Assembly: GCA_963697785.1 (NCBI GenBank)
Contig: OY969098.1
Coordinates: 1,107,386 to 1,171,385, forward strand
From: an uncultured Alphaproteobacteria bacterium
GTDB lineage: Bacteria; Pseudomonadota; Alphaproteobacteria; Rhizobiales; Beijerinckiaceae
Length of the DNA stretch: 64,000 bases
Direction: 5' to 3'
Each line of letters opens with the position of its first letter. Within the stretch, counting starts at the first letter, position 1. Below are positions 3,582-59,671 of the stretch, in pieces. The position numbers and the translations under genes are program-made. Under the pieces are notes generated by a model, which saw nothing but the letters and a program-made list of their open reading frames with translations, was not told the DNA's origin and did not search any database.

Positions 3582-4446
3582 TCATCCCCCGATCACGGCA
3601 ACTGTTACGGCCTACGATCGAATCGACCAGGCGATCGATACGGTCAATCGGCTCCAGGCCTGCACCCCGCCGCCTGACGAAATCATCGTGCACGTAGACG
3701 CCGGGCGGCTCGATTGCGCGAGCGCCATTCGCACCAGTTTTCCCAGGCTGACCGTCCTAATTAGCGAGGATGGTATTGGTCCGGGGGGCGCCCGAAATCG
3801 GTTGATGAGAGCAGCAAGGAATGATCTGGTCGCCACTTTCGACGATGATTCCTATCCGTTCGACACAGACTTCTTTGCGCGGGCGGCCGAGCTCTTCTGT
3901 CGATTTCCCGATGTCTCCCTGTTCGCGGCGCGCGTCTTTCATCCGGGCGAAACTGTCGAGCCCGCCACGCGCGAGGTTAGGCTGACCGGGAGTTTTAGTG
4001 GCTGCGGGGTCGTCTTTCGCCGCATGGATCTAATCGAGGCGGGGAGCTATCTACCCTTGCCAATCGCCTACGGTGCGGAGGAAGAAGACATGGCGCTTCG
4101 ACTTTTTGATCGCGGCCGAATTCTGATGCGCACTGCCTGGTTGCGTGTATTCCACGATTTGCGATTGTCTCACCATGGCCGGGCGGAGATAAACGCGCAA
4201 ACCTTGGCGAATATTGGCTTGGTCGCTTTCCTTCGCTATCCGCCAATGTACTGGCCCTTCGGGCTGGCGCAGGTCGGTAACCGAATCCGCTGGTGTCTTA
4301 ATGTCGGGCGAACGAAGGGCCTTATTTCTGGCCTGACACTCATGCCGTTACTTGCGTGGCGGTTCCGGGGCATGCGCACCCCTGTCGGACGTGAAGCGAT
4401 CCGCCGCAAGCGAAGCGCCGATCTGGCGCCCGCCACGATATTCTGA
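3574..4446 (+). CDS. family 2 glycosyltransferase
   Basis: ITATVTAYDRIDQAIDTVNRLQ, GPGGARNRL and a DxD-like ATFDDDSYPF. The ORF is intact. Confidence 0.7.
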   Translation: MLSHPPITATVTAYDRIDQAIDTVNRLQACTPPPDEIIVHVDAGRLDCASAIRTSFPRLTVLISEDGIGPGGARNRLMRAARNDLVATFDDDSYPFDTDFFARAAELFCRFPDVSLFAARVFHPGETVEPATREVRLTGSFSGCGVVFRRMDLIEAGSYLPLPIAYGAEEEDMALRLFDRGRILMRTAWLRVFHDLRLSHHGRAEINAQTLANIGLVAFLRYPPMYWPFGLAQVGNRIRWCLNVGRTKGLISGLTLMPLLAWRFRGMRTPVGREAIRRKRSADLAPATIF

Positions 4447-4638
4447 TGGCCTGTGGTTCGCGAGAACCCGGACATGGACAAACCGGGCCAAAGAGTTGAG
4501 CTACTAAACATCGACCCGGATTTCTCAATGTGCGGCTGCAGGTAATCGCCACTCGCCAGATCACTAGCGCCTTATGAGCCAAGGCCACACTGATGAGAGG
4601 GGACATTTGCCACGGCTTCACGCCGGTCAGAATCAATC

Positions 4639-5760
4639 GTGTCTCAATTGAAGACGAACATCTTGCCGAGCGTGGTGGTAGTTCAAGCCGGTGCCCGGCA
4701 CAATTACGCGATCGCTCGAATATTGCGACAGCGCGGCGCTCTTCTAGGATTGATCACGGATTTTGGTTGGAGCGAATCCTCGAAGTATCGACCCATCTTG
4801 AATACTCTTGGCAAACACGCGCCAGGACTGGACAGAAGGCGGATACCGGAGCTCACTGTCGACCAGGTAAAGGCAATTTGGGGGGCAAGTCTGCTGAGCG
4901 TTAGCTCCCGGGTCTTCGGAAAAGCAATGGACAGATTGGCGGAAACCTGGTTCGACGCGCGTTGCGGCCGTCTCTGGCTTGACGAGGCTAACATCATATA
5001 TTCCGTTCCACTCAGATCCGAGGGGGAGTACTTAAACCGGGCGCGGCAGAACGGTTTGATGGTTGCTTCTGAGGTGTTCATAACACCCGTTGCACATCGC
5101 ATAATCGCTGAGGAGCAGCGCGCCTACCCTGGTTGGGACGATGTCTCCCAGGAAGGGGTGCCTCCAGAGGTGATGGAGGCCCACATAATTCGGGTTATTC
5201 GACAGTCAGACCTTCTGATTTGCCCATCGGAGTTCGTAATTGACGGACTCCAATGCTTCCAAGAATTCGATCGGCGAAAATCCGTTGTTATTCCGTACGG
5301 TAATGCGTCGAGGCCTCGTCCATCGGCTGCTCCAGAGAAAGGTCGCGTCTTGTTTGCAGGGACCGCCAATTTACGAAAGGGAATCCACTATCTTGCTCTT
5401 GCGGCCCGCATTTTGAGCTCACGAGCTCCTCAGTTTAAGATCTATGTTGCCGGGAAAGTAAACGCAGCCCTGCGGTTGAAACCCGAATGTAAATGCCTAC
5501 ACTTCCTGGGGCAGCTGAGCGCTCCCCAAATGGCAGCAGAATTCAGTCGAGCCGATATCTTCGTGTTGCCTACCTTGGCCGAGGGATCGGCTAGCGTGAT
5601 TAACGAAGCGCTGGCATCGAGTGTCCCGGTTGTGACGACACTCGCGGCCGGTTCGATCGTTCGGGATGGCGCCGAAGGGCTCATCGTACCCGGTAGAGAT
5701 GCCGAGGCCATCGTACAAGCTATCTTGCGCATTGGCTTGGATCGCGAGCTTCGAGACTAA
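4639..5760 (+). CDS. family 4 (group 1) glycosyltransferase
   Basis: GTANLRKGIHYL, FVLPTLAEGSASVINEALASSVPVVTT and EGLIVP. A GT4-like C-terminal tail (MSLRAAQAISARDQQRWGDELMEAL) continues in another frame to about 5899, so a 3' frameshift is possible. Confidence 0.75.
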   Translation: MSQLKTNILPSVVVVQAGARHNYAIARILRQRGALLGLITDFGWSESSKYRPILNTLGKHAPGLDRRRIPELTVDQVKAIWGASLLSVSSRVFGKAMDRLAETWFDARCGRLWLDEANIIYSVPLRSEGEYLNRARQNGLMVASEVFITPVAHRIIAEEQRAYPGWDDVSQEGVPPEVMEAHIIRVIRQSDLLICPSEFVIDGLQCFQEFDRRKSVVIPYGNASRPRPSAAPEKGRVLFAGTANLRKGIHYLALAARILSSRAPQFKIYVAGKVNAALRLKPECKCLHFLGQLSAPQMAAEFSRADIFVLPTLAEGSASVINEALASSVPVVTTLAAGSIVRDGAEGLIVPGRDAEAIVQAILRIGLDRELRD

Positions 5761-5996
5761 TGAGTTTACGCGCAGCACAGGCAATTAGCGCGCGGGATCA
5801 ACAGCGTTGGGGCGACGAACTTATGGAGGCGCTAAGCGGACTAATAAATGCGGGGGATAGTTGTCTGGCCCCAAAAGCAGCTCATCACTCGGAAAGGTGA
5901 CTATGACTCTGGTCGTCGGGCAAGTTCGCTCGAAAGAATGCTTTCTCACTACAAAGTGTAGTTCGCAGGGTTAGTGAAACGGAATGGTGACCGCGC

Positions 5997-7450
5997 ATGC
6001 CGGTATTGCCTGATGGCTACTTCTTCGCGGTACTAGCGTTCGCTTGCGTGTCTGCGATCGGGCTGCTCCGCCTAAATACGTCGTGGGGCATACCATACAC
6101 AGCCACCGCGTTTACAATAGGTGGTTGGTATCTAATCGAGCCTGTCTATTTTTCTCATGAATTTAGATTGCTCGATCTGCGCTATGTCGAAGCTGCTTTT
6201 GACAACGTTGTGGTATTTTTTGTGGCGTTTGCCATCGTAACTCCGATCTTGGCGCACAAATTCAAGTGTGGTCGCGCAAGGCTGATCGGTACACCAAGCA
6301 TTCCGCCTGAGCATGTCCTAACTATTACTGCAATCATTTGGGTGGCGTTGCTCGCCTATGGAGTGATGCGATTGCGAGGTGACGTTGTAACCGCCCTCTT
6401 CCCGTTAGGTGGACGCTGGACGGGGGACATGTGGGATCGTGCCGGCGCGGCCGCAGCGGGAGCAGAAGGATTTATCGTCTCGATCGCGGGCTACCTTTAC
6501 ATGCTCATGCTGGCGTCCTTTGGAGTCCTCTTATTTATCGTACGAAAAAAAGCTATCGCGCCTTTGCGCTGGCTCTAATTCTGGTTTCGTGGCCATATGC
6601 ATTCCTCCAGGGAACGCGCAATGTAACGCTGTTCGTGGTTGTCCCGGGGATTATGTACTATGTCTTGTTCTTTAAAAGTCCCAAGATCGTTAAAGCACTG
6701 ATCGTCGTTCCGATATTCCTAATACTCGAATTGGCGCTACGAGGAATTGTCGCCTACCGCGACGTGGGTTATGAAAACATCCAACTTGCAAAGGTGGAGG
6801 GAGCGCAGCATCTCGGCTTGAATATGGCCTCCGAACTTGTTTATTCATTGAGCTTTGTTGATCGGGGTGTGATGCGCTTGAGTTATGGAGGAGAGTACTT
6901 CCAAGAAATCGTGAACTTTATACCACGAGCCATTTGGCGAGATAAGCCGCTTCTGGGTATAGACTATTCGATCGCACGAGGGTTCGGGCTCCCTTTTGGG
7001 GATGCCGTTAATGATACAGGCGTGGTTGCAACGATAGCTCCGGGTGTGATCGGACAAGGCGTCTTAAACTTTGGCCCAATCCTGGGGGCGATAGTCGCGG
7101 CATTATTGATGGGCTTGTGGGTGGCTTTTCTAGCGCGCCTTCGCGCTCAAGGTACCTTGCTTCGCACCATTTTGTTTCTGCTCGGGCTTGGCCTGACCTT
7201 CAATCTAGGGCGAGGCATCACATTGCTTGTGCTCTGGCCGATGGTATTTGGGTACATCGGCGTTCGCCTCCTCGAACATGTTGAACACGAACGCATGCGC
7301 CTAACTAAGCGGACAATACAGAGATCCCCGCACACGGAATTCCGCACGATTGGACGAAGCTCCGTCAATGTCACGGGGCCAAAACCCTCGAACAACTCGT
7401 CCCGTCCCAATCCTGCACGTTCTAGCTCCCCAAATTCTCTGTCTAATTAA
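5997..7450 (+). pseudogene. Wzy-like O-antigen/EPS polymerase (polytopic membrane protein), frame break at an A7 tract
   Basis: ORFs 5997-6578 and 6431-7450 are both multi-TM and overlap. The reading frame switches at aaaaaaa (6545-6551). The family call rests on topology and context only. Confidence 0.5.
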
Positions 7451-7489
7451 TTATCGCAAGCCTAAGATCGTCGTCTTAAGGCCTCTTTG

Positions 7490-7688
7490 ATGAAAGTCGC
7501 CGTTGTCTTTAATCACCTCGGACCTTATCACATTGCCTAGAATATCAGCCGCCGCGCGGCGCTGCGAATTGCTAGCGATTCGGATTGAAGGACGCGCCTT
7601 GGGAGGTAACTTTGTTGTGGCGATGGTATATCGTCTGACGTTAGCTGCAGAAATTGTTAGACGGCATGTGAGCTTGCGAAAAACCTAG
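7490..7688 (+). pseudogene. N-terminal fragment of a glycosyltransferase paralogous to the gene at 8870
   Basis: MKVAVVFNHLGPYHIA then a stop, continuing RISAAARRCELLAIRIEGR in a second frame. Compare MRIGVIFNNFGPYHIARLSALARR..LAIEVVGR at 8870. Confidence 0.45.
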
Positions 7689-7720
7689 ACTTATATGCCT
7701 CTATGCAAATAGAATAATGT

Positions 7721-8449
7721 TCAGCATTGGAGAGGGGGCGTCACAAGGGAATCCAAGAGCGCCAATGGTCGAAGCGGCAATATTACGATCCAGCCGAATA
7801 GTGGGTGAATTTTTGCTCCCGTTCTCATGATCCAGGTAAGCTTTTGGCTCATGACGCCGCCGCAAAAGGACAGCTCTTGGCATCTCAGCCCGGATTGCTC
7901 GATTAGTTCCAGCAGCATCGAGCGCGTGTAACCGCGTCGCACGTGCCACCCGGTCTCCGTGGCGCAGAACGGACCGTTGTCCGGGCTCGTAATTGCACGA
8001 TAATAGAAGTTGGGAGTGGTTAGCAAAAGACGACCACCTGGTTTGAAGCACGTCGCAATGCTCCGCAAAAGTCGGGCGTCGTCAAGAATGTGTTTGATGT
8101 TTTCGGCGCAGATGGCGACATCGAACCCTTCCCGATATTCGGTACACCGGTCAAGCTCCCGCACATCCAGAACGGTGAAGGTAGCTCGCTTTGCACCGCA
8201 TAGAGAGGCGCGCCGGACAGCCTCTGCATTGTTTCGCTCGTCCCAGCTCAATCCATGCGAAGTGTAGCCTCTCAAAGCCGCTCCTATCGTGAATGCGCCA
8301 GTGCCGCATCCAATATCCAACAGCTTCTCTCCGTTCGCGGTGATAGGTAGGCGATGTTTGAGCCAACGCCAACGATCCCAAACTAGGGTGTCGCCGTGAA
8401 TTAGAGTGGCGGGAAAGCCAAACAACCTCACTAAGAGAGATTTGTCCAT
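7721..8449 (-). CDS. class I SAM-dependent methyltransferase
   Basis: LLDIGCGTGAFTIGAALRGY (motif I), FDVAICAENIKHI and KPGGRLLLTTPN. The ORF is intact. Confidence 0.75.
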   Translation of the reverse strand: MDKSLLVRLFGFPATLIHGDTLVWDRWRWLKHRLPITANGEKLLDIGCGTGAFTIGAALRGYTSHGLSWDERNNAEAVRRASLCGAKRATFTVLDVRELDRCTEYREGFDVAICAENIKHILDDARLLRSIATCFKPGGRLLLTTPNFYYRAITSPDNGPFCATETGWHVRRGYTRSMLLELIEQSGLRCQELSFCGGVMSQKLTWIMRTGAKIHPLFGWIVILPLRPLALLDSLVTPPLQC

Positions 8450-8869
8450 GAGGGTCTTTTCAGAATTGATACGGCTCCATTCGAATTCCTCTGCGCACCA
8501 AGGTGTTACTAGCAGCTCCTGGGTCCGTCCGGCAGGTGCATAAGAATGCGTGCAGTACGATCTTTGTCGCCGCAGGTCGAAGCATTACTTCAGGCCGTTC
8601 GCAACGGGGATATTTTCGTGAGGTACTCAAGAAACCTGGCTCGCTGTGATTCTCGGCGAGAGCGAGCCTGAGGCTTCCAATGTAGCTTTGATGTTCTGGA
8701 AAGTTGCTTGCTATTTCTAGGCTTTTTTCAACCAGAAGGTCGATATGAATAACGAAGGTAAAGGAAGGCACCGAATTTCCGTCGGCGCCGTTACGCAATG
8801 GGCCGTAGAACGCCCCCGCTTTTATCCAAAGTCATATGCTGACCGCCTTTGGCTACACCACGTCGAGTT

Positions 8870-10078
8870 ATGAGAATTGGCGTTATTTTCAATAACTTTG
8901 GCCCCTATCACATTGCTCGCCTCTCTGCTCTCGCGCGACGGCTATATGTTAGCGATCGAAGTAGTAGGACGAAGCGCGGAATATGGCTGGAATCTAGCGG
9001 AGAGTGTGCCATTCGAGCGGAAGACACTGTTCGCTTCGGAGAGCTCTTCTGATTTCAGTGCCAGAGAATACCTTCGCCGCCTGGATCGGGAGCTTTCGCT
9101 TTTTAATCCCGATGTTCTCGCTGATCCCAGGTTGGTGTGGATTGGACGCCCTTCAAGCGATGGATTGGGCTCAGAGGCGGCGCGTGCCTGTCGTCGTTAT
9201 GTCCGAGAGCCAACGGGATGACTTAAAGAGGTCGCGTCTTAGAGAATGGTTGAAAGCTCGTTACTTACAAAATTGCCAAGCAGCGCTCGTTGGGGGATCG
9301 CCGCATCGGGAATATCTTGAATATCTCGGAATGGATCCGGCGCGCATTTGGTGCGGGTATGACGCTGTCGACAACGCCTTCTTCAGTATCCACGCGGATG
9401 CGGCAAAGGCTGACGCCTCAGCCTTGCGCCATCAGTATGATCTGCCCGAACGGTTCTTTCTCGCGTCGGCACGTTTCATCCCGAAAAAAAATCTGCTTGC
9501 CCTAATCAGAGCGTATCAGCTTTATCGCCGCAAAGCGGAAAGCAAAAGGTCCGGAAGCAGCGGCTGGGAGCTAGTTCTGCTAGGTGACGGTATTTTGCGC
9601 CAATCATTGGAAGCCGAAGTGGCGACATTTGGGTTCGCCGGCAACGTGAAGATGCCAGGCTTTCAGCAGTATAGCGACCTTCCTGCCTATTATGGCCTGG
9701 CCGACGCATTTGTCATGCCTAGTAACAGAACAATGGGGGCTTGTTGTCAATGAAGCCATGGCGTCCGGCCTGCCAGTATTGGTATCGATTCGTTGTGGAT
9801 GTGCTCCTGATCTCGTCAAGGAAGGGTGCAATGGCTATACTTTTGACCCGTTCGACGTAACAGGCCTAGCTGATTTAATGCTCAGGATTGTCGGACGAAG
9901 GCTTTGACCGCCACGCAATGGGAAAGGCCAGCCGCAAAAATCGCCGAGTGGTCACCCAAACGCTTCGCCCAAAATCTTATCCACGCGGCGAACTATGCTA
10001 TGAGTCTGCCTCAGATGCGACATGACGGCGCTCGATACTCTGATCTTGAAAATGCTGATCGCTCGTTCCTCTTTATGA
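8870..10078 (+). pseudogene. family 4 glycosyltransferase, at least 3 frameshifts (3' end approximate)
   Basis: Pieces lie in three frames: MRIGVIFNNFGPYHIARL, VPVVVMSESQRDD..ALVGGSPHREYL, YYGLADAFVMPS, then EQWGLVVNEAMASGLPVLVS..EGCNGYTFDP. Confidence 0.6.
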
Positions 10079-52999: not shown

Positions 53000-53770
53000 C
53001 TACTTGGCCAATTGCGCAAAATATATCCGCGTGGCATACGGCACGTTCATTTTTTCTGGGAAGCTCGCCAGGTATTTCGTGATTTCGGCGATGATCCGAT
53101 CGAATACCGCATCACTGCCCGCTTGACGTCTCAAAGTGGCATGCGATTTCCAAGCGATGATGACATCGGCCTTAGGCATTTCCCAATTGAACGTGCGTTC
53201 GATCGACTTCGCTGGCAAAAAATAGCCGCTGGAATTGATCACATTGGTGGGGTCTTCTCGCCTTGACCCATAAGAATAGCCCGCGATGAACGATTTGATA
53301 ATAGATTCAATTTTCTGCTGAATGGGATCGTCCAAATCTCGGTGATTCCACATGCAGGCAAACCATCCGCGCGGCAATAGTATTCTCTTGACCTCTGCCA
53401 ACGTGGCCTTTTGATCGACCACGTTGAACGAGCTGCCAAAAAATACGGCGTGAAAGGTATTCGCTGGCAATCCAGTCGCCTCGCCGGTTCCGACGGACCA
53501 AGTAACGGATTTTCCATTTGTATTTTTGATGCCGATTTCGCGCATCGCATCGTTCGGCTCAACCGATTGAAGAGTCAGCCCGTGCTTCAGCAACTCCTTC
53601 GTGAGTTTGCCGGTGCCTGCGCCGATTTCGGCGATAGGGGTTTGCGGGGTGCATCCCGTGGCGGTTACCAGATCCCTGATTGCGTCATAGGAGTAGTCGG
53701 CTCTCTTATCGTAGTGAGACGCATGCTCTGTGTAATCCCAATTGACTTTTGGACTCGTCGAATTTGTCAT
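53000..53770 (-). CDS. class I SAM-dependent methyltransferase
   Basis: ATG at 53770 follows GAGGAATATT. IAEIGAGTGKLTKELLKHGLTLQSVEPNDAMRE (motif I and post-I) and FHAVFFGSSFN. Intact. GC is lower than in the upstream genes. Confidence 0.75.
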   Translation of the reverse strand: MTNSTSPKVNWDYTEHASHYDKRADYSYDAIRDLVTATGCTPQTPIAEIGAGTGKLTKELLKHGLTLQSVEPNDAMREIGIKNTNGKSVTWSVGTGEATGLPANTFHAVFFGSSFNVVDQKATLAEVKRILLPRGWFACMWNHRDLDDPIQQKIESIIKSFIAGYSYGSRREDPTNVINSSGYFLPAKSIERTFNWEMPKADVIIAWKSHATLRRQAGSDAVFDRIIAEITKYLASFPEKMNVPYATRIYFAQLAK

Positions 53771-53838
53771 AATATTCCTCTTGATGGGTCGTTGATTGGT
53801 CAAGTCGATCAAAGTTGTCGGAGACACGAATAAATTGG

Positions 53839-54609
53839 CTACCAACCAGAGCCCGCGAGAGGCTGCTCCAGCAGGAGTTCGCCGCCTCGGATCATGCCTT
53901 GGTAGAGTTGGACGTCCGCGGGATTGTCGATTTCACCCCACTGGCCGTAGGTGCCGAAGGTGCCCACGGGAACTGCCTTCGCGGCCAGCAGTCGGCGCAA
54001 TAATCCGGTCATGTCGAGACGGTCGCGGACCGGCGCGTCGAGCGTTGCCAGCAATGCTTCAACGGCAGCCCATGCGGTAGGCGTGAATTTGAGGAGGCCG
54101 ATGTACTGCCCCTCGATGTCCTCGATATTCGTCGTCTTGCCGCCGATCTCGAGCAATTCATGGGATGCATCCAGGCGGAAGGTCTCGGCGTCCGACAACG
54201 GATCGCTGAAGCGCCGCGCCCACAGGCGCTGCCATTCCCGATCGTAGCTAATGACGAGCGCTCCCGGCGCATTAGCCAGACCACGCACCAGGTCGCCTCG
54301 ATAGAATATATCAGCGTAGCTGACGATGACCGGCCCTGCGCGCAGCCATTCGGCCGCCGCCGCAAGCGACATTACCATGTTGGTTTCAGCCCATCGCGTG
54401 TTGTCAAAGTAGGACAGACGGGGAAAATTCAGCATCTCGGCGCGATAGCCGCGGACGATTCCTATTTCATCCACTCCGCCGCGTCGCAGCGCCGCTACTT
54501 GACGATCGAGCAGCGGCCTGCCGTCAAGCTCGACCAAACATTTCGGGCGGTTGTCGCCCAACGGCCCCATGCGGCTGCCGCGCCCGGCGGCCAGGATCAC
54601 GGCGCGCAT
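53839..54609 (-). CDS. LicC-like nucleotidyltransferase (Cj1416-like cytidylyltransferase candidate)
   Basis: MRAVILAAGRGSRMGPLGDNRPKCLVELDGRPLL. The start overlaps the upstream stop (TGATG at 54607-54611). Intact. Confidence 0.75.
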   Translation of the reverse strand: MRAVILAAGRGSRMGPLGDNRPKCLVELDGRPLLDRQVAALRRGGVDEIGIVRGYRAEMLNFPRLSYFDNTRWAETNMVMSLAAAAEWLRAGPVIVSYADIFYRGDLVRGLANAPGALVISYDREWQRLWARRFSDPLSDAETFRLDASHELLEIGGKTTNIEDIEGQYIGLLKFTPTAWAAVEALLATLDAPVRDRLDMTGLLRRLLAAKAVPVGTFGTYGQWGEIDNPADVQLYQGMIRGGELLLEQPLAGSGW

Positions 54610-55211
54610 CAAGCCGCCCTGAATACGCGGCGGAAGAGCGCGACATCGAAGTCCGCAAACGGAGTGTTTCGCTCCGGGTGCCACATGATCCCCGTGGTCG
54701 GCCGCCCCGAATCGCGTATCGCCTTGACGACGCCGTCGGCGGCAACCGCCCAGACCTCGAGGGGAGGGCGCGACTCGCGGGCGGCGAAGCGATGATAGCT
54801 GTTGACTTTCATGGGCTCACTGTCGATTTGAATGATTTGACTCTGGGTGACATGGCCTTCGACGCGAAGTAGCGGGATGGCGCATCGTTGCTGGATGAGC
54901 TGCATACCACGGCAAACCCCGAGGATGGGCAGGCCGCGGGATTCCGCCGCGTCCATGAGAGCGTTCTCGGTGGCGTCGCGCTCCGGCGCGTCTCCGCCGA
55001 GCGATGCGAGATCATTGCCTCCCGTCAATAGCAGGCCCGCAACATTCGAAGCGCTGAACATAGCTTGCGCTACGCCGGGAACGTTGGGCATCACCAACGG
55101 TAGTAGTCCGCAGACTGAGATGAATCGCGGCCAAGCCTGATCCAGGCAATCGCGACGCTCGCCATAAGCAGCAACGACCGTTACGCGTTGCGTAATCGCG
55201 ACGGTCTTCAT
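54609..55211 (-). CDS. class I glutamine amidotransferase / peptidase C26 hydrolase (Cj1417-like)
   Basis: GLLLTGGNDL, the nucleophile elbow GVCRGMQLI and GIMWHPER. ATGA overlap with the upstream gene at 55208-55211. Intact. Confidence 0.75.
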   Translation of the reverse strand: MKTVAITQRVTVVAAYGERRDCLDQAWPRFISVCGLLPLVMPNVPGVAQAMFSASNVAGLLLTGGNDLASLGGDAPERDATENALMDAAESRGLPILGVCRGMQLIQQRCAIPLLRVEGHVTQSQIIQIDSEPMKVNSYHRFAARESRPPLEVWAVAADGVVKAIRDSGRPTTGIMWHPERNTPFADFDVALFRRVFRAA

Positions 55212-58147
55212 GCGATCGGCAATACCTGTTGGTTGGTGCAGTCCAGGCACAGCTTCTGCGCGCTCTGCCAGCGCTTATACAGGGTTTCGCCAGCGCCGAT
55301 CACCGCCGGGATGCCGAGCTCGCCAGCGCGAATCGCCATGTGCGAGTTGGCGCCCCCGAACTGGGTGACGAAGCCGCTGATGTCGCGCGTAAAGATCCAG
55401 TCGAAACCCGGATCCGCACTCGGTACGAACAGTATCCGGCCCGCGAAGCTTTCCGGGGGATCGCCGACCGAGGCAATCGGCGCGGTAACGCTTTTGCGCG
55501 TGATGAAGTTGGGCTGACTTGGGGGCAAATGAAAAGCGAAGACTTCATTGGGCGCGGCGATGATGGGCGGCAGGAAGAGCTTGCGCGTCAGCGCATGCCG
55601 CTGTCTGCCGCGCGCGATGCTGTCGAGCAGCCGCTCTCGGACCGAACCGCTCTCGCTATACAGCGTGCGGATGGCATCGTAGTCGAGGAAAGCGCAATCC
55701 TCAACCGAGAGACCGTATTCCTCGCCTACCTGCCGAATCAGCGATAAAGCGTCGCTCAGACTGCGCGTGAACACGAACTTGGCGTACTCTCGGCCTTCTA
55801 TGCCGGCCTTGATGAACTCGATCAAACTCAGCACATCGATATCGAGCTGATGCTCCTTGAGCAGCTGCTCGATGCGTCGCAACTGCTCGATTGACAGCGC
55901 GAAGCGCGGCTGAGCGGACGAACTCGCGCGGGCTTTTGACCAGTCCAAATACAGGTCGGGCGCCTCATCGTAACGAGGCGACAAAATATCGTACGTGCCC
56001 GGCCGCAGGTGGCCGTAGCGCGCCAAGAACTCTTCCTTGCTCAAGTGAGCGAAATCGTGACCGATCCGCGACCCGACAGTGTCGACGCTGGCCATGAACG
56101 TCGTGTGCTCTTCATTATCGAGAACGCCGGCCGCGACGAAGGACTGAAGCAGCTGCACGGCGATGAATCCGGCGCGTGCCAGCCCGGCAAAGGGCAAGGT
56201 TCCGTAGCGTTTGCAGTCCTCGATAAGCCAGTAGATGCGGCTGATTTTGTCGATCTTGGCGTTGGCGATCATCGGCAGGCGCTGAGCCAACAGATCGATC
56301 TTCCCGCGATCGCGCCGCCACAACGCCGTCTCACCGTGGATGATGCGATTGGTGAGACGCCGCAATGCGTCCGACAGTTCGGTGATGTCCGCTTGCGAGA
56401 AGCCGTTCTGCGCCAGCTTGCCAAGCCGCTGCGGCAAATCGAGCGTGTAGCATGAAAAGATGATCTCGAATTCCACCTTGTCGTGCAGCTGCGGTTCGGC
56501 CAATAGTCGATCGATGTAGTAATTCACTAAGCGTCCGGCGAGATCGTTCGGCAGGTCGCGCGGTACGAAGGAATTGAAGCTGACGCGCACGTCGATATAA
56601 GGCAAGCCGTGGAAGCTCACCAATAGCGGGAAGCTGCGCAAATTCTGATAACCGTAATTATCGCGCTGATACGCCCAGATCGCATCGGTGACTAGTTCGC
56701 GATACAACGACAATGACAGCGGCCAGGGTCGCAGGCCTATGATCTCCGCCGGGTTCCAATCCGGCATTACGCCGAAAATCGAGCGTGTGCCGTGCAGAAA
56801 GGGATGCGGACGGCTGAGCAGTTCGACCTTACGAGCCACGTCGGCCAGCGCAGTGTCGACTTTCGCGTCAGCGGCCGTTTCCACGCGGTCTACTGAAAGG
56901 CGGCGGACTTGCAGCAGATAGATTTGCCCGTGGCCATCGATCGCGAATTCCACGTCGATTGCATCGCAGCCAAACAGGCTCTCTAGTTCGCCGACCAGCG
57001 CGAGGACCGGAGCCAAGGCCCCGGGGCAGGCGTCAATGCGCGATTTGAGGCAGAAGAAAGTCTCGAGATTGTCTCCCACCCCACTGGTCACGCGATCCGT
57101 ACGGCCCGACCGATCGTCGTAGTTGACGATGTAGTACGGCCCGCCACCGCTGGGCGGGCGGGAAAAGGCCACGCCGGCCATGGCGACGCCTTCGAGCATA
57201 GGTTGCAGGAAAACTTGGTCCTGCAAGCTTCCCCCGTCGGCAAATGAAGCGATGACCGTTTCGATCGCTTGCGCGATGTCAGCGCTACCCAGAACTCCGA
57301 GCACCGAATCGTAACGTCCGGCCTGGGAACGCGTCGGACCATCCTCGCCCTGCGCGCTGCTGCGGACGATGACGGGGCGGGAGCTCCAGCGCTCGGCTGC
57401 AATCAGGGCCAGCACTGCGGCGCGATCGGTTTGCCACTCGGCCACCGAGAAACGGATTTGCGGCAGGATCCGCGCAGTGCGCAGGCGCGGTGCCAGGATC
57501 TCCAGGGTCTCGGCCTTGGTGCCAAAGCGTATGCCAGCTGGGCGCTTGGTGCTGCCTGTGTCGCGCGCGACACATTCCAGCCAGATGCGGTCCACTGCGG
57601 CGATGCTGTCGAGTTCCCCAAAGTTGTCCAACGTCAGGTCAGGCGCCTCCGGCAGCTCCGCTGGCACATCGAGCCCTACGACATCGCGCAGATCCCCTCG
57701 CTGAGCTGCGGCGTAGATGCCTTTAGCGTCCCGCCGCCGCAATTCGTCCAGCGGTACTCGAAGGTAAATCTCCCAATAACCCGGAATGTTTTCGCGATTC
57801 CAGCGCTGAACTTCATGAAACATTGAAATGGTCGAGCAGATGACGTCTTGGCCCTGGCTGGAGAGCAGCTTGCATAGTCGGGCGTTGCGCATCGCCGATT
57901 TGCGCCGGCTGGCGGTGCTATGACCGAGATCTTCGGAGATCACTTCGCGCAGGGCGTCGCCATCCAGAAAAATGACCGCGCGGCCCGCGGCGCGCAGCCG
58001 ACGCCCAAGCTCGCTGCCAACCGTAGTTTTACCCGCGCCCGACAATCCGGTAATCCAGAACACTTGGCCCGTGCAGGTTTGGGCGTCGGCGGCATCCGGC
58101 GGGCTGGCATGCCTCGAAACTACGTTTGTGTGTCTAAGCGCTCCCAT
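55208..58147 (-). CDS. fusion protein: APS-kinase-like P-loop kinase (aa ~25-185) + PEP/pyruvate-binding ATP-grasp domain + PEP-utilising swivel His domain (Cj1415-like + Cj1418-like)
   Basis: Intact 979 aa. VFWITGLSGAGKTTVGSEL, FLDGDALR and RRRDAKGIYAAAQRGDL form the APS-kinase fold. FGTKAETLEIL and VRSSAQGEDGPTRSQAGRYDSV form the PPDK_N-like part. TQFGGANSHMAIRAGELGIPAVIGAG is the mobile His domain. Confidence 0.85.
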   Translation of the reverse strand: MGALRHTNVVSRHASPPDAADAQTCTGQVFWITGLSGAGKTTVGSELGRRLRAAGRAVIFLDGDALREVISEDLGHSTASRRKSAMRNARLCKLLSSQGQDVICSTISMFHEVQRWNRENIPGYWEIYLRVPLDELRRRDAKGIYAAAQRGDLRDVVGLDVPAELPEAPDLTLDNFGELDSIAAVDRIWLECVARDTGSTKRPAGIRFGTKAETLEILAPRLRTARILPQIRFSVAEWQTDRAAVLALIAAERWSSRPVIVRSSAQGEDGPTRSQAGRYDSVLGVLGSADIAQAIETVIASFADGGSLQDQVFLQPMLEGVAMAGVAFSRPPSGGGPYYIVNYDDRSGRTDRVTSGVGDNLETFFCLKSRIDACPGALAPVLALVGELESLFGCDAIDVEFAIDGHGQIYLLQVRRLSVDRVETAADAKVDTALADVARKVELLSRPHPFLHGTRSIFGVMPDWNPAEIIGLRPWPLSLSLYRELVTDAIWAYQRDNYGYQNLRSFPLLVSFHGLPYIDVRVSFNSFVPRDLPNDLAGRLVNYYIDRLLAEPQLHDKVEFEIIFSCYTLDLPQRLGKLAQNGFSQADITELSDALRRLTNRIIHGETALWRRDRGKIDLLAQRLPMIANAKIDKISRIYWLIEDCKRYGTLPFAGLARAGFIAVQLLQSFVAAGVLDNEEHTTFMASVDTVGSRIGHDFAHLSKEEFLARYGHLRPGTYDILSPRYDEAPDLYLDWSKARASSSAQPRFALSIEQLRRIEQLLKEHQLDIDVLSLIEFIKAGIEGREYAKFVFTRSLSDALSLIRQVGEEYGLSVEDCAFLDYDAIRTLYSESGSVRERLLDSIARGRQRHALTRKLFLPPIIAAPNEVFAFHLPPSQPNFITRKSVTAPIASVGDPPESFAGRILFVPSADPGFDWIFTRDISGFVTQFGGANSHMAIRAGELGIPAVIGAGETLYKRWQSAQKLCLDCTNQQVLPIA

Positions 58148-58153
58148 CTCCCC

Positions 58154-58299
58154 CTCAGTTTACGGTGGTTAGTCCCTCTCAGTTTATGGTGGTTGGATGT
58201 TTTATCGAAATGTCACGCACCTGTCATGTGCGGCTCACGGTTGTTCGTTATTTTCTCGAAGTGTCACAGAAAATGTCACGGACCTGTCATGTGCGGCTC
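58154..58299. promoter_or_regulatory. two pairs of direct repeats in the divergent intergenic region
   Basis: CTCAGTTTA(C/T)GGTGGTT at 58154 and 58178. AAATGTCACG(C/G)ACCTGTCATGTGCGGCTC at 58208 and 58271. TGTCAC/TGTCAT half-sites recur 5 times. Confidence 0.4.
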
Positions 58300-58420
58300 T
58301 TCACGGACGGGGGGAACCGCCAAATCTTGAGCGTAATCAAGCGCGATTTTCCTCCAACGTCGGGTAGTGCGAGGGCTAACTGCCGGCAGGGTTTTCTTTA
58401 GGTTGCGAGTGCGCTACCGA

Positions 58421-59671
58421 ATGAATATGGCAGCGACCTTTAAGGAGGAAAAACTTTTGCAGGACGCTCGGGCACTGTATTGTGCCGAGCAAAATAAAGA
58501 CTTGCGCTCTCTCATAGCCAGAAAAATTGAAGATCTTCGGTCATACGATGTCCTTAACATGGATAGAGCCGTCGCAGTTTGCCATTGGGGCAGAAGCGGG
58601 TCGTTTCTTGCGTGCAGCTACCTTGATGGACATGAAGACGTGCTGCAACTTCCGCCGCGTTTTTGCGAAGAAATCTATCAATTCTTTGACAATTATCAGT
58701 CGTTGTCTCTGCACGACAAGCTGATCATCTACCCGATCGTCACAGATCGTTTTGTAGGAAATTTTCCGATCGCTGCAGGAGATTATTACGCGGCAGTAAC
58801 TGCCATATCTGAGATTTACGGGGATTTTTCGCCGCAACGTCTCGAAACTAGTCGGGCATTCTGTCAATTTATACACGTTGCCCACGGCTTAGCCCTCGGT
58901 CGACGTCCGTCCAGTCCGCACCCCTTGATGGTGTACTCGATGCATTGGTGGGATAAAGCTTTGGCGCCTCGCTTTTTGGCGGACTTTCCGCAGGCTCGCT
59001 TTCTCCATACAGTTCGGGATCCAATCACAACCTACGACCGCTCATTCGAACATTTTGGAATAGCCGATAGGAACGAAGAAGCCTGCTGGCAGTGGATCCG
59101 TTATTTAGAGAAAGCAGACCACCCTCATCCAGGGATGGAAGCATGCACATGCGCAATTCGGTTTGAAGACTTACATAATAAGACAGCGGAAACGATAGGC
59201 CGGCTTGCGGAGTGGCTGAAGCTTCCTCGCCATGCATCGTTGTTGGAAAGTACTTTTAACGGTATGCCCTATGTCGTTGAACGGGCTGGCGTCGCATGGT
59301 CGGGACCTCGCCCCGAGCAAGCGCAGCGGTTTTTGAGCAACATTTCACTCATCGACCAAGCGCTGCTGTTCGCGTTGTTTTATGAAAACTTCGTCGCTTG
59401 GAATTACCCTTGTCCTAAAATTTTTAGACATACATTAGTGCGCGGATTCACGTGTATGCTGCTCTTTCCCGTTCCATGGAAAGCAGAAATAATTAGCGCC
59501 CGCGCGACCATCAGACGCCGCGTGGTTCCGTCTTTGAGGCATCGACGCTTTCGGCTTGCTTTCAGGGAACTATCGGGGGTGTTTAGGCGCCGGCTTTTTA
59601 TAATGTGGTTGGTAACCTCGGAAATCTGTCGGCGGCTTATTTTTGGAAAGACTGTTTTGAAAATACTGTGA
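58421..59671 (+). CDS. sulfotransferase-fold protein
   Basis: The 5'-PSB-like motif is AVCHWGRSGSFLACSYLDG. The 3'-PB-like motif is ARFLHTVRDPITTYDRSF. Intact. GC is lower than in the neighbours. The start (ATG 58421 or 58427) is uncertain. Confidence 0.55.
   Translation: MNMAATFKEEKLLQDARALYCAEQNKDLRSLIARKIEDLRSYDVLNMDRAVAVCHWGRSGSFLACSYLDGHEDVLQLPPRFCEEIYQFFDNYQSLSLHDKLIIYPIVTDRFVGNFPIAAGDYYAAVTAISEIYGDFSPQRLETSRAFCQFIHVAHGLALGRRPSSPHPLMVYSMHWWDKALAPRFLADFPQARFLHTVRDPITTYDRSFEHFGIADRNEEACWQWIRYLEKADHPHPGMEACTCAIRFEDLHNKTAETIGRLAEWLKLPRHASLLESTFNGMPYVVERAGVAWSGPRPEQAQRFLSNISLIDQALLFALFYENFVAWNYPCPKIFRHTLVRGFTCMLLFPVPWKAEIISARATIRRRVVPSLRHRRFRLAFRELSGVFRRRLFIMWLVTSEICRRLIFGKTVLKIL

Follow-up and report, generated by a model that had tools for sequence, protein, structure and literature searches.

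In Campylobacter jejuni the Cj1415-Cj1418 pathway makes CDP-phosphoramidate 3'-phosphate (PMC11800397), and genetics assigns the subsequent phosphoramidate transfer to Cj1421 and Cj1422 (PMC11800397, PMC9561416). These two proteins consist of a conserved N-terminal region of 244 residues, followed by a transmembrane segment and a C-terminal DUF2972 domain (PMC5808241), and expression of their genes is switched by poly-G tracts. The N-terminal domain of the family is designated DUF8374 (PF28160). According to reviews, neither the modification nor its glutamine kinase occurs outside Campylobacter (PMC6429109, PMC9561416), and in August 2025 the group that solved the donor pathway still listed the decoration step as future work (PMC12409886). 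Our literature search found no published phosphoramidate transferase with a sulfotransferase fold. To our knowledge, the transfer step has never been reconstituted in any organism, and is known only from Campylobacter knock-outs.

Here we examine a gene at 58421-59671 of the window, by which we mean the whole 64,000-nucleotide stretch of alphaproteobacterial DNA that was analysed. This gene faces a cassette resembling the Campylobacter donor pathway, and the structures closest to its product are sulfotransferases: the CurM and OLS domains (4gbm, 4gox) and TPST1/2 (5wrj, 3ap1), all of the Sulfotransfer_3 type and with some 12-16% identity to the window protein, and the heparan sulfate 3-O- and N-sulfotransferases (1t8t, 1nst), PAPS-using enzymes of the eukaryotic Golgi with 10-14% identity. 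We propose, with a probability of roughly two in three, that the product of this gene has the fold of the PAPS sulfotransferases but acts as a phosphoramidate (phosphoramidyl) transferase.

The gene and its neighbouring cassette

The open reading frame at 58421-59671 lies on the plus strand and runs uninterrupted for 416 codons from its ATG, with a GTG at 58367 as an alternative start that would add 18 residues. A profile built from 48 homologs aligns to the encoded protein over positions 3-418 of 419 with a score of 676 bits, and another, near-identical protein of 416 residues is already present in sequence records; the gene is therefore intact. Its description as a sulfotransferase-fold protein and candidate phosphoramidate transferase draws on the reading frame, Pfam, a structural model and fold matches. 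The protein divides into a helical cap (residues 1-44), a sulfotransferase core (45-332) and a tail of long helices (333-416), the last of these being very basic (20 K/R versus 3 D/E). No transmembrane segment was found in the tail or in the rest of the protein, and the gene has no poly-G phase-variation tract, its longest homopolymer being 5 nt. Both of the strings that the first-pass annotation had read as PAPS-binding signatures are present in the translation, the 5'-PSB-like HWGRSGSFL at residues 55-63 and the 3'-PB-like HTVRDPITTYDRS at residues 196-208.

The same annotation had placed the gene divergently from the donor cassette, and this is what we find: the nearest cassette gene, encoding a kinase fusion, starts at 58147 on the minus strand. 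The 273 bp between the two genes (58148-58420) form one end of an inverted 5.1-kb cassette, whose history is discussed below.

The cassette comprises four minus-strand genes. The first of these (55208-58147) encodes a 979-residue fusion in which an N-terminal APS-kinase-like domain (Cj1415 type, a putative CDP-amidate 3'-kinase) is followed by an L-glutamine kinase (Cj1418 type). The fusion scores 962 bits against NF004508 (cut-off 501) and 182 bits against NF004041/PRK05541 (cut-off 127), and its 122 bits against the canonical apsK/CysC model TIGR00455 fall under the cut-off of 138.7. That the APS-kinase-like domain passes PRK05541 and fails the canonical CysC cut-off is counted here in favour of the phosphoramidate reading. 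The second gene (54609-55250, minus strand) encodes a class-I glutamine amidotransferase of the Peptidase_C26 type, similar to Cj1417 and a putative gamma-glutamyl-CDP-amidate hydrolase; its top NCBIfam match, NF045546, scores 106 bits and lies under the cut-off of 250, with Peptidase_C26 at 90 bits. The third (53839-54684, minus strand) encodes a MobA-like nucleotidyltransferase, which we regard as a candidate CTP:phosphoglutamine cytidylyltransferase of the Cj1416 type on the strength of its conserved position in the cassette and a 76-bit match to the general NTP_transf_3 domain, the sole domain match obtained. Finally, a class-I SAM methyltransferase (53000-53845, minus strand; Methyltransf_11/25) occupies the position of Cj1419/Cj1420 and is a candidate phosphoramidate O-methylase; a methyltransferase is found in nearly all of the linked cassettes described below. 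Taken together, the four genes correspond to the Cj1415-Cj1418 pathway, with the amidase and cytidylyltransferase as candidate members whose order relative to the kinase gene is conserved in the 34 linked loci described below.

Fold and conserved residues

An AlphaFold model of the 416-residue protein, built on the 48 homologs, has a mean pLDDT of 90.2. When this model was compared with the PDB using Foldseek, all of the top matches were PAPS-dependent sulfotransferases, and the alpha/beta fold of the PAPS-dependent sulfotransferase superfamily (Pfam Sulfotransfer_3) was thereby recovered. The family profile also matches CurM ST at E 8e-6. In the significant stretch of this alignment VRDP aligns to VRHP, and GRSGS falls opposite PRSGST in a first stretch that is weak, at 3.4 bits, and by itself not significant. 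Structural and language-model look-alikes in the ESM Atlas all came from clusters of sulfotransferases or TPR-sulfotransferases, and none of them led to DUF2972.

Conservation was counted across the 48 homologs, which are 48-70% identical to the window protein, and 33 alignment columns are invariant among them. The 5'-phosphosulfate-binding motif (P-[KR]-x-G-[ST]-[ST]) corresponds to W56-G57-R58-S59-G60-S61, where G57 and G60 never vary and two of the 48 sequences depart from R58, as two do from S59. The complete set of invariant or near-invariant residues includes G57, R58, S59, G60, S61, D69, H71, H175, D188-F189-P190, R199-D200-P201, R247, E249, D250, H252 and S277-T278-F279-N280-G281. Within the 3'-phosphate motif, R199-D200-P201 is invariant and aligned to the VRHP of CurM ST; the serine position of the motif is taken by Arg207 in 36 of the 48 homologs and by Gly in 12.

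The family departs from its solved relatives in several respects. Whereas TPST and CurM use a Glu base some 21 residues past the loop Arg, this residue is not conserved and has no counterpart in the window family, position 79, to which it aligns, being variable (E in 13, T in 12 and A in 7 of the 48). The 3'-phosphate serine of TPST and CurM is likewise replaced, in most sequences by Arg207 as above. Relative to CurM, OLS and TPST, the family has invariant residues of its own (H175, H252 and the STFNG of 277-281), and the window protein has an extra N-terminal cap and the basic C-terminal tail. In the phylum and Bryobacterales samples described below, the clade furthermore occurs only where the glutamine kinase of the cytidine phosphoramidate pathway is also encoded. 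A candidate base, by analogy with cytosolic SULTs, is H175, which is invariant and located where a core strand ends. The alignments argue that the nucleotide-binding frame of a PAPS enzyme has been kept and that the catalytic details are the family's own. The conserved residues do not discriminate between adenine and cytosine in the donor, nor between the cytidine donor and PAPS.

Comparison with the Campylobacter transferases

The first-pass annotation had left it undecided whether the window gene would be analogous or homologous to Cj1421/Cj1422. The 416-residue protein gave no match to NF058596 ('CJJ1420_fam') or to DUF2972 (PF11186) even at E<=10, and by this measure is not recognisable as a member of the Cj1421/Cj1422 family. 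Searches of whole genomes gave the same picture. NF058596 (cut-off 600 bits) had no match at E<=1 in the window genome, with the control genomes likewise lacking one, and was absent from all six cassette genomes tested (the window genome and five others), while DUF2972 was absent from the window genome and from 401 genomes of the phylum. Plasmids with kinase matches carried other transferases and no DUF2972. On these results the sulfotransferase-fold protein is the one candidate that the conserved module offers for the transfer.

The two systems share their setting: both kinds of transferase gene adjoin a Cj1415-1418 donor pathway together with methyltransferases, and in both there are often two or more paralogs per genome. 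They differ in that the window protein has neither the sequence match, the transmembrane segment nor the poly-G tract, and in that the hosts of the sulfotransferase-fold family are bacteria of soil and peat and not Campylobacter.

Linkage and co-occurrence with the donor pathway

A scan of one genome per species returned 44 homologous loci in 39 assemblies. Their hosts, most of which come from peat and soil, are Bryobacterales (Acidobacteriota), Alphaproteobacteria and Gammaproteobacteria, the last including Steroidobacteraceae, so that the tie between the family and the donor pathway spans three phyla or classes at the least. In 34 of the 44 loci (34 of the 39 assemblies) the genes for the kinase fusion, amidase, cytidylyltransferase and methyltransferase are no more than 10 kb away, a count that includes two loci with no tblastn match to the amidase and one with none to the methyltransferase. 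At 23 of the 34 linked loci the genes follow one another on the same strand in the order kinase, amidase, cytidylyltransferase, methyltransferase and sulfotransferase-fold gene, the last of these closing the operon. The arrangement varies elsewhere: the sulfotransferase-fold gene is divergent from the cassette at two loci (L012 and L017), as in the window, and on a metagenome contig of 5.7 kb the gene for the closest relative of the window protein (72% identical) is convergent with the cassette. No further genes were found to be conserved around the cassette and the sulfotransferase-fold module in the homologous loci.

For five of the ten unlinked loci, the assembly also has a linked copy, and three of these five are clear second copies on the same contig (L034/L029, L039/L019, L030/L032). 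Five other assemblies have an unlinked locus; three of them carry NF004508 elsewhere, and the kinase was not found in two, which are family-bearing MAGs whose completeness is not known. The second copy in L030 (8289-8774) shares its contig with the linked copy, at a distance of 465 kb, and is accompanied only by a stand-alone APS-kinase-like ORF, approximately 1.2 kb upstream and 34% identical to the fused domain. More distant relatives of the family (P0182, P0188, P0131) lie on contigs too short to inform on context.

We then considered co-occurrence without regard to distance, using an even sample of the phylum that comprised 400 genomes besides the window genome and a profile threshold of E<=1e-15. 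The kinase was found in 13 genomes, eight of which also encode relatives of the window protein, and no such relative was found in the 387 kinase-negative genomes (Fisher p 8e-14, a value that is overstated, as related genomes are not independent). The first-pass annotation had named co-occurrence of the family with Cj1415-1418 homologs as a check of its proposal, and the outcome is strongly positive for both the linked loci (34 of 44) and this genome-wide comparison. As other sulfotransferases, of weak similarity, are present in kinase-negative relatives, it is this clade that is linked to the pathway and not sulfotransferases generally. Among 151 genomes of the order Bryobacterales the sulfotransferase-fold family occurs in two, both kinase-positive, and in 20 relatives of the window organism neither the glutamine kinase nor the sulfotransferase-fold family was found.

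In six of the eight positive phylum genomes the kinase gene and the matches are about 6 kb apart or less. Five of the eight were examined, and all five have TPR-sulfotransferase fusions at most 6 kb from the kinase. These loci (L082-L086, from G234, G310, G182, G258 and G381) carry one to three TPR-Sulfotransfer_3 fusions each, often two or three, with lengths of 560-710 residues and 22-30% identity to the window protein; they also include one tandem double sulfotransferase of 1168 residues, and their kinase is unfused. A local rule, according to which an APS-kinase-like gene would always stand beside the sulfotransferase-fold gene, was considered and rejected: no such gene occurs in the stretches of L082, L083, L084 and L086 examined. 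Three of these four genomes, and also G254, have a second, divergent APS-kinase-like gene elsewhere.

The association is not complete in the other direction. Five of the 13 kinase-positive phylum genomes have no relative of the window protein, and a Bryobacterales cassette (L074) has no sulfotransferase-fold relative within 9 kb, so other transferases must exist. In two further cassettes, one on a Vibrio alfacsensis plasmid (NZ_CP140104.1; L053, 11365-17030) and one in L075 (7910-15445), the glutamine kinase is without an APS-kinase-like domain, there is no sulfotransferase-fold gene, and a homolog of the TagF-like CDP-glycerol glycerophosphotransferases (Glyphos_transf) lies just downstream. 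In these two cases only, the TagF-like homolog may be an alternative transferase that uses unphosphorylated CDP-amidate. A further variant is seen on plasmid AZO_p6 of Azospirillum lipoferum 4B (L054, 8647-21251), where the cassette includes a separate 846-residue protein with a C-terminal APS-kinase domain. Two proteins of the Sulfotransfer_1 type are encoded close by, so that here another sulfotransferase family keeps the same company.

History of the locus

The low GC content of the sulfotransferase-fold gene had been taken in the first-pass annotation as a sign of separate acquisition. The difference itself is real, with 50% in this gene against 61-63% in the kinase, amidase and cytidylyltransferase genes and 61.8% in the genome, but it is weak evidence for such a history, the methyltransferase gene of the cassette being equally at 50%. 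A comparison with a related alphaproteobacterial MAG (L043) is more informative. Window positions 53000-58130 match positions 4435-9550 of this locus with 92% DNA identity over 5,135 bp, in inverted orientation, and the high-identity match ends at 58130. The flanks, including the start of the sulfotransferase-fold gene, match in direct orientation at 68-80% identity, and the sulfotransferase-fold protein is 49% identical to its counterpart. All five genes are colinear in L043.

This pattern indicates that the four-gene donor cassette of the window was inverted or replaced recently, as a unit, and such an event relative to the transferase gene would account for the divergent arrangement seen here. 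No inverted repeats were found flanking the inverted cassette. Given 92% DNA identity for the cassette and 49% protein identity for the transferase, the two have separate histories, that of the transferase being the older; the idea of separate acquisition is thus supported by the L043 comparison and not by GC content. The window as a whole (1-64000) has a mean GC content of 55%, compared with 61.8% in the genome, and contains many short ORFs, giving it the look of an extended low-GC island whose genes have decayed.

Discussion

The linkage, the genome-wide co-occurrence and the fold support the phosphoramidyl-transferase activity first suggested for this gene from its motifs and position. Alongside the observed fold, conserved motifs, linkage and co-occurrence, we infer a mechanism that specifies a donor, an acceptor, roles for single residues and an order of methylation. 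In this mechanism, the glutamine kinase, cytidylyltransferase and amidase would produce CDP-amidate, to which the fused APS-kinase-like domain would add a 3'-phosphate, yielding 3'-phospho-cytidine-5'-diphosphoramidate. The transferase would hold this donor as sulfotransferases hold PAPS, with the GRSGS loop (R58) on the 5'-diphosphoramidate and R199, together with R207, on the 3'-phosphate. An acceptor hydroxyl, probably that of a lipid-linked or nascent surface glycan, would then attack the terminal phosphorus in line, with cytidine 3',5'-bisphosphate as the leaving group, H175 as the candidate general base and S277 as a candidate ligand of the transition state. The methyltransferase of the cassette would subsequently O-methylate the product to give a MeOPN-like group, and the basic, amphipathic C-terminal tail may tether the enzyme to the membrane's inner face. 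Counted against the phosphoramidate reading are the position of the window gene itself, which is divergent and lies outside the operon, and the lack of obvious polysaccharide assembly genes beside it.

The conserved binding residues are equally those of a PAPS enzyme, and the protein might be an ordinary PAPS-dependent glycan sulfotransferase, which would travel with the cassette as both decorate the same polysaccharide, the real phosphoramidate transferase going unrecognised elsewhere. Both PAPS-type motifs and the fold are intact, and the cassette on the Vibrio plasmid adjoins cysD/cysN. The window genome encodes CysD and a CysN-CysC fusion (C1:2513489-2516196) and can therefore make PAPS, so that an argument from absent PAPS synthesis had to be rejected. 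Yet a PAPS enzyme needs only CysC, and this clade is found in none of the 387 kinase-negative genomes, against 8 of the 13 that have the kinase. The sulfotransferase-fold gene is moreover the terminal gene of the operon at 23 loci, no alternative transferase is conserved near the cassette, and the Campylobacter-type families NF058596 and DUF2972 are absent from the genome sets given above. We consequently regard this explanation as unlikely. The window organism probably also performs true PAPS-dependent sulfation: a second, canonical Sulfotransfer_3 domain (185 bits; G000:C1:2253451-2254023) is encoded outside the window, in a 684-residue ORF.

A further explanation accepts the phosphoramidate donor and questions the acceptor: in place of a surface glycan, the group might be transferred to a lipid, to the side chain of a protein or to some small metabolite. 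There are no obvious polysaccharide assembly genes or glycosyltransferases beside the window gene, and among its neighbours are genes for a fatty-acid desaturase, a PAP2 phosphatase and a patatin-like lipase. Of the relatives with solved structures, the closest do not modify sugars, the substrates of CurM/OLS and TPST being acyl chains and proteins, and the basic tail is suggestive of membrane contact. Against this, glycosyltransferases, heptose-pathway genes and GT14 'Branch' genes are common in the related loci, the window encodes an intact initiating sugar transferase 19 kb upstream of the gene, and a capsule sugar is the acceptor in the sole system studied (PMC11800397). On balance a non-glycan acceptor appears improbable. 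That the protein is not a transferase at all, and serves instead as a non-catalytic or salvage component such as a 3'-phosphonucleotide binder, is very improbable: the single point in its favour is that the TPST/CurM-type Glu base is not conserved at the aligned position, and the 33 invariant columns across 48 sequences, including H175, S277 and the rest of STFNG near the predicted active site, are typical of an enzyme.

Should the phosphoramidate-transferase reading hold, it would add a new reaction to the sulfotransferase fold and would give a reason for the PAPS-like 3'-phosphate on the donor. It would also provide a tractable enzyme for the transfer step, at 416 residues and with no transmembrane segment, and many of the database 'sulfotransferase' annotations beside these cassettes would probably be wrong. 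More tentatively, and as a possibility that we hold less likely than not, the reading may extend to all Sulfotransfer_3-like proteins of the clade, whether they stand alone, are fused to TPR domains or form tandem doubles; these would be phosphoramidyl transferases using a cytidine analogue of PAPS and recruited independently of the DUF2972 enzymes of Campylobacter. If this were true of the clade, phosphoramidate surface decoration would be widespread in soil Acidobacteriota and Proteobacteria, and not a Campylobacter curiosity.

Finally, a pair of DUF1501/DUF1800 genes recurs in the surroundings of the module, adjoining the sulfotransferase-fold gene in one locus (L004, 11435-14380) and the cassette in another (L074, 4764-7727).
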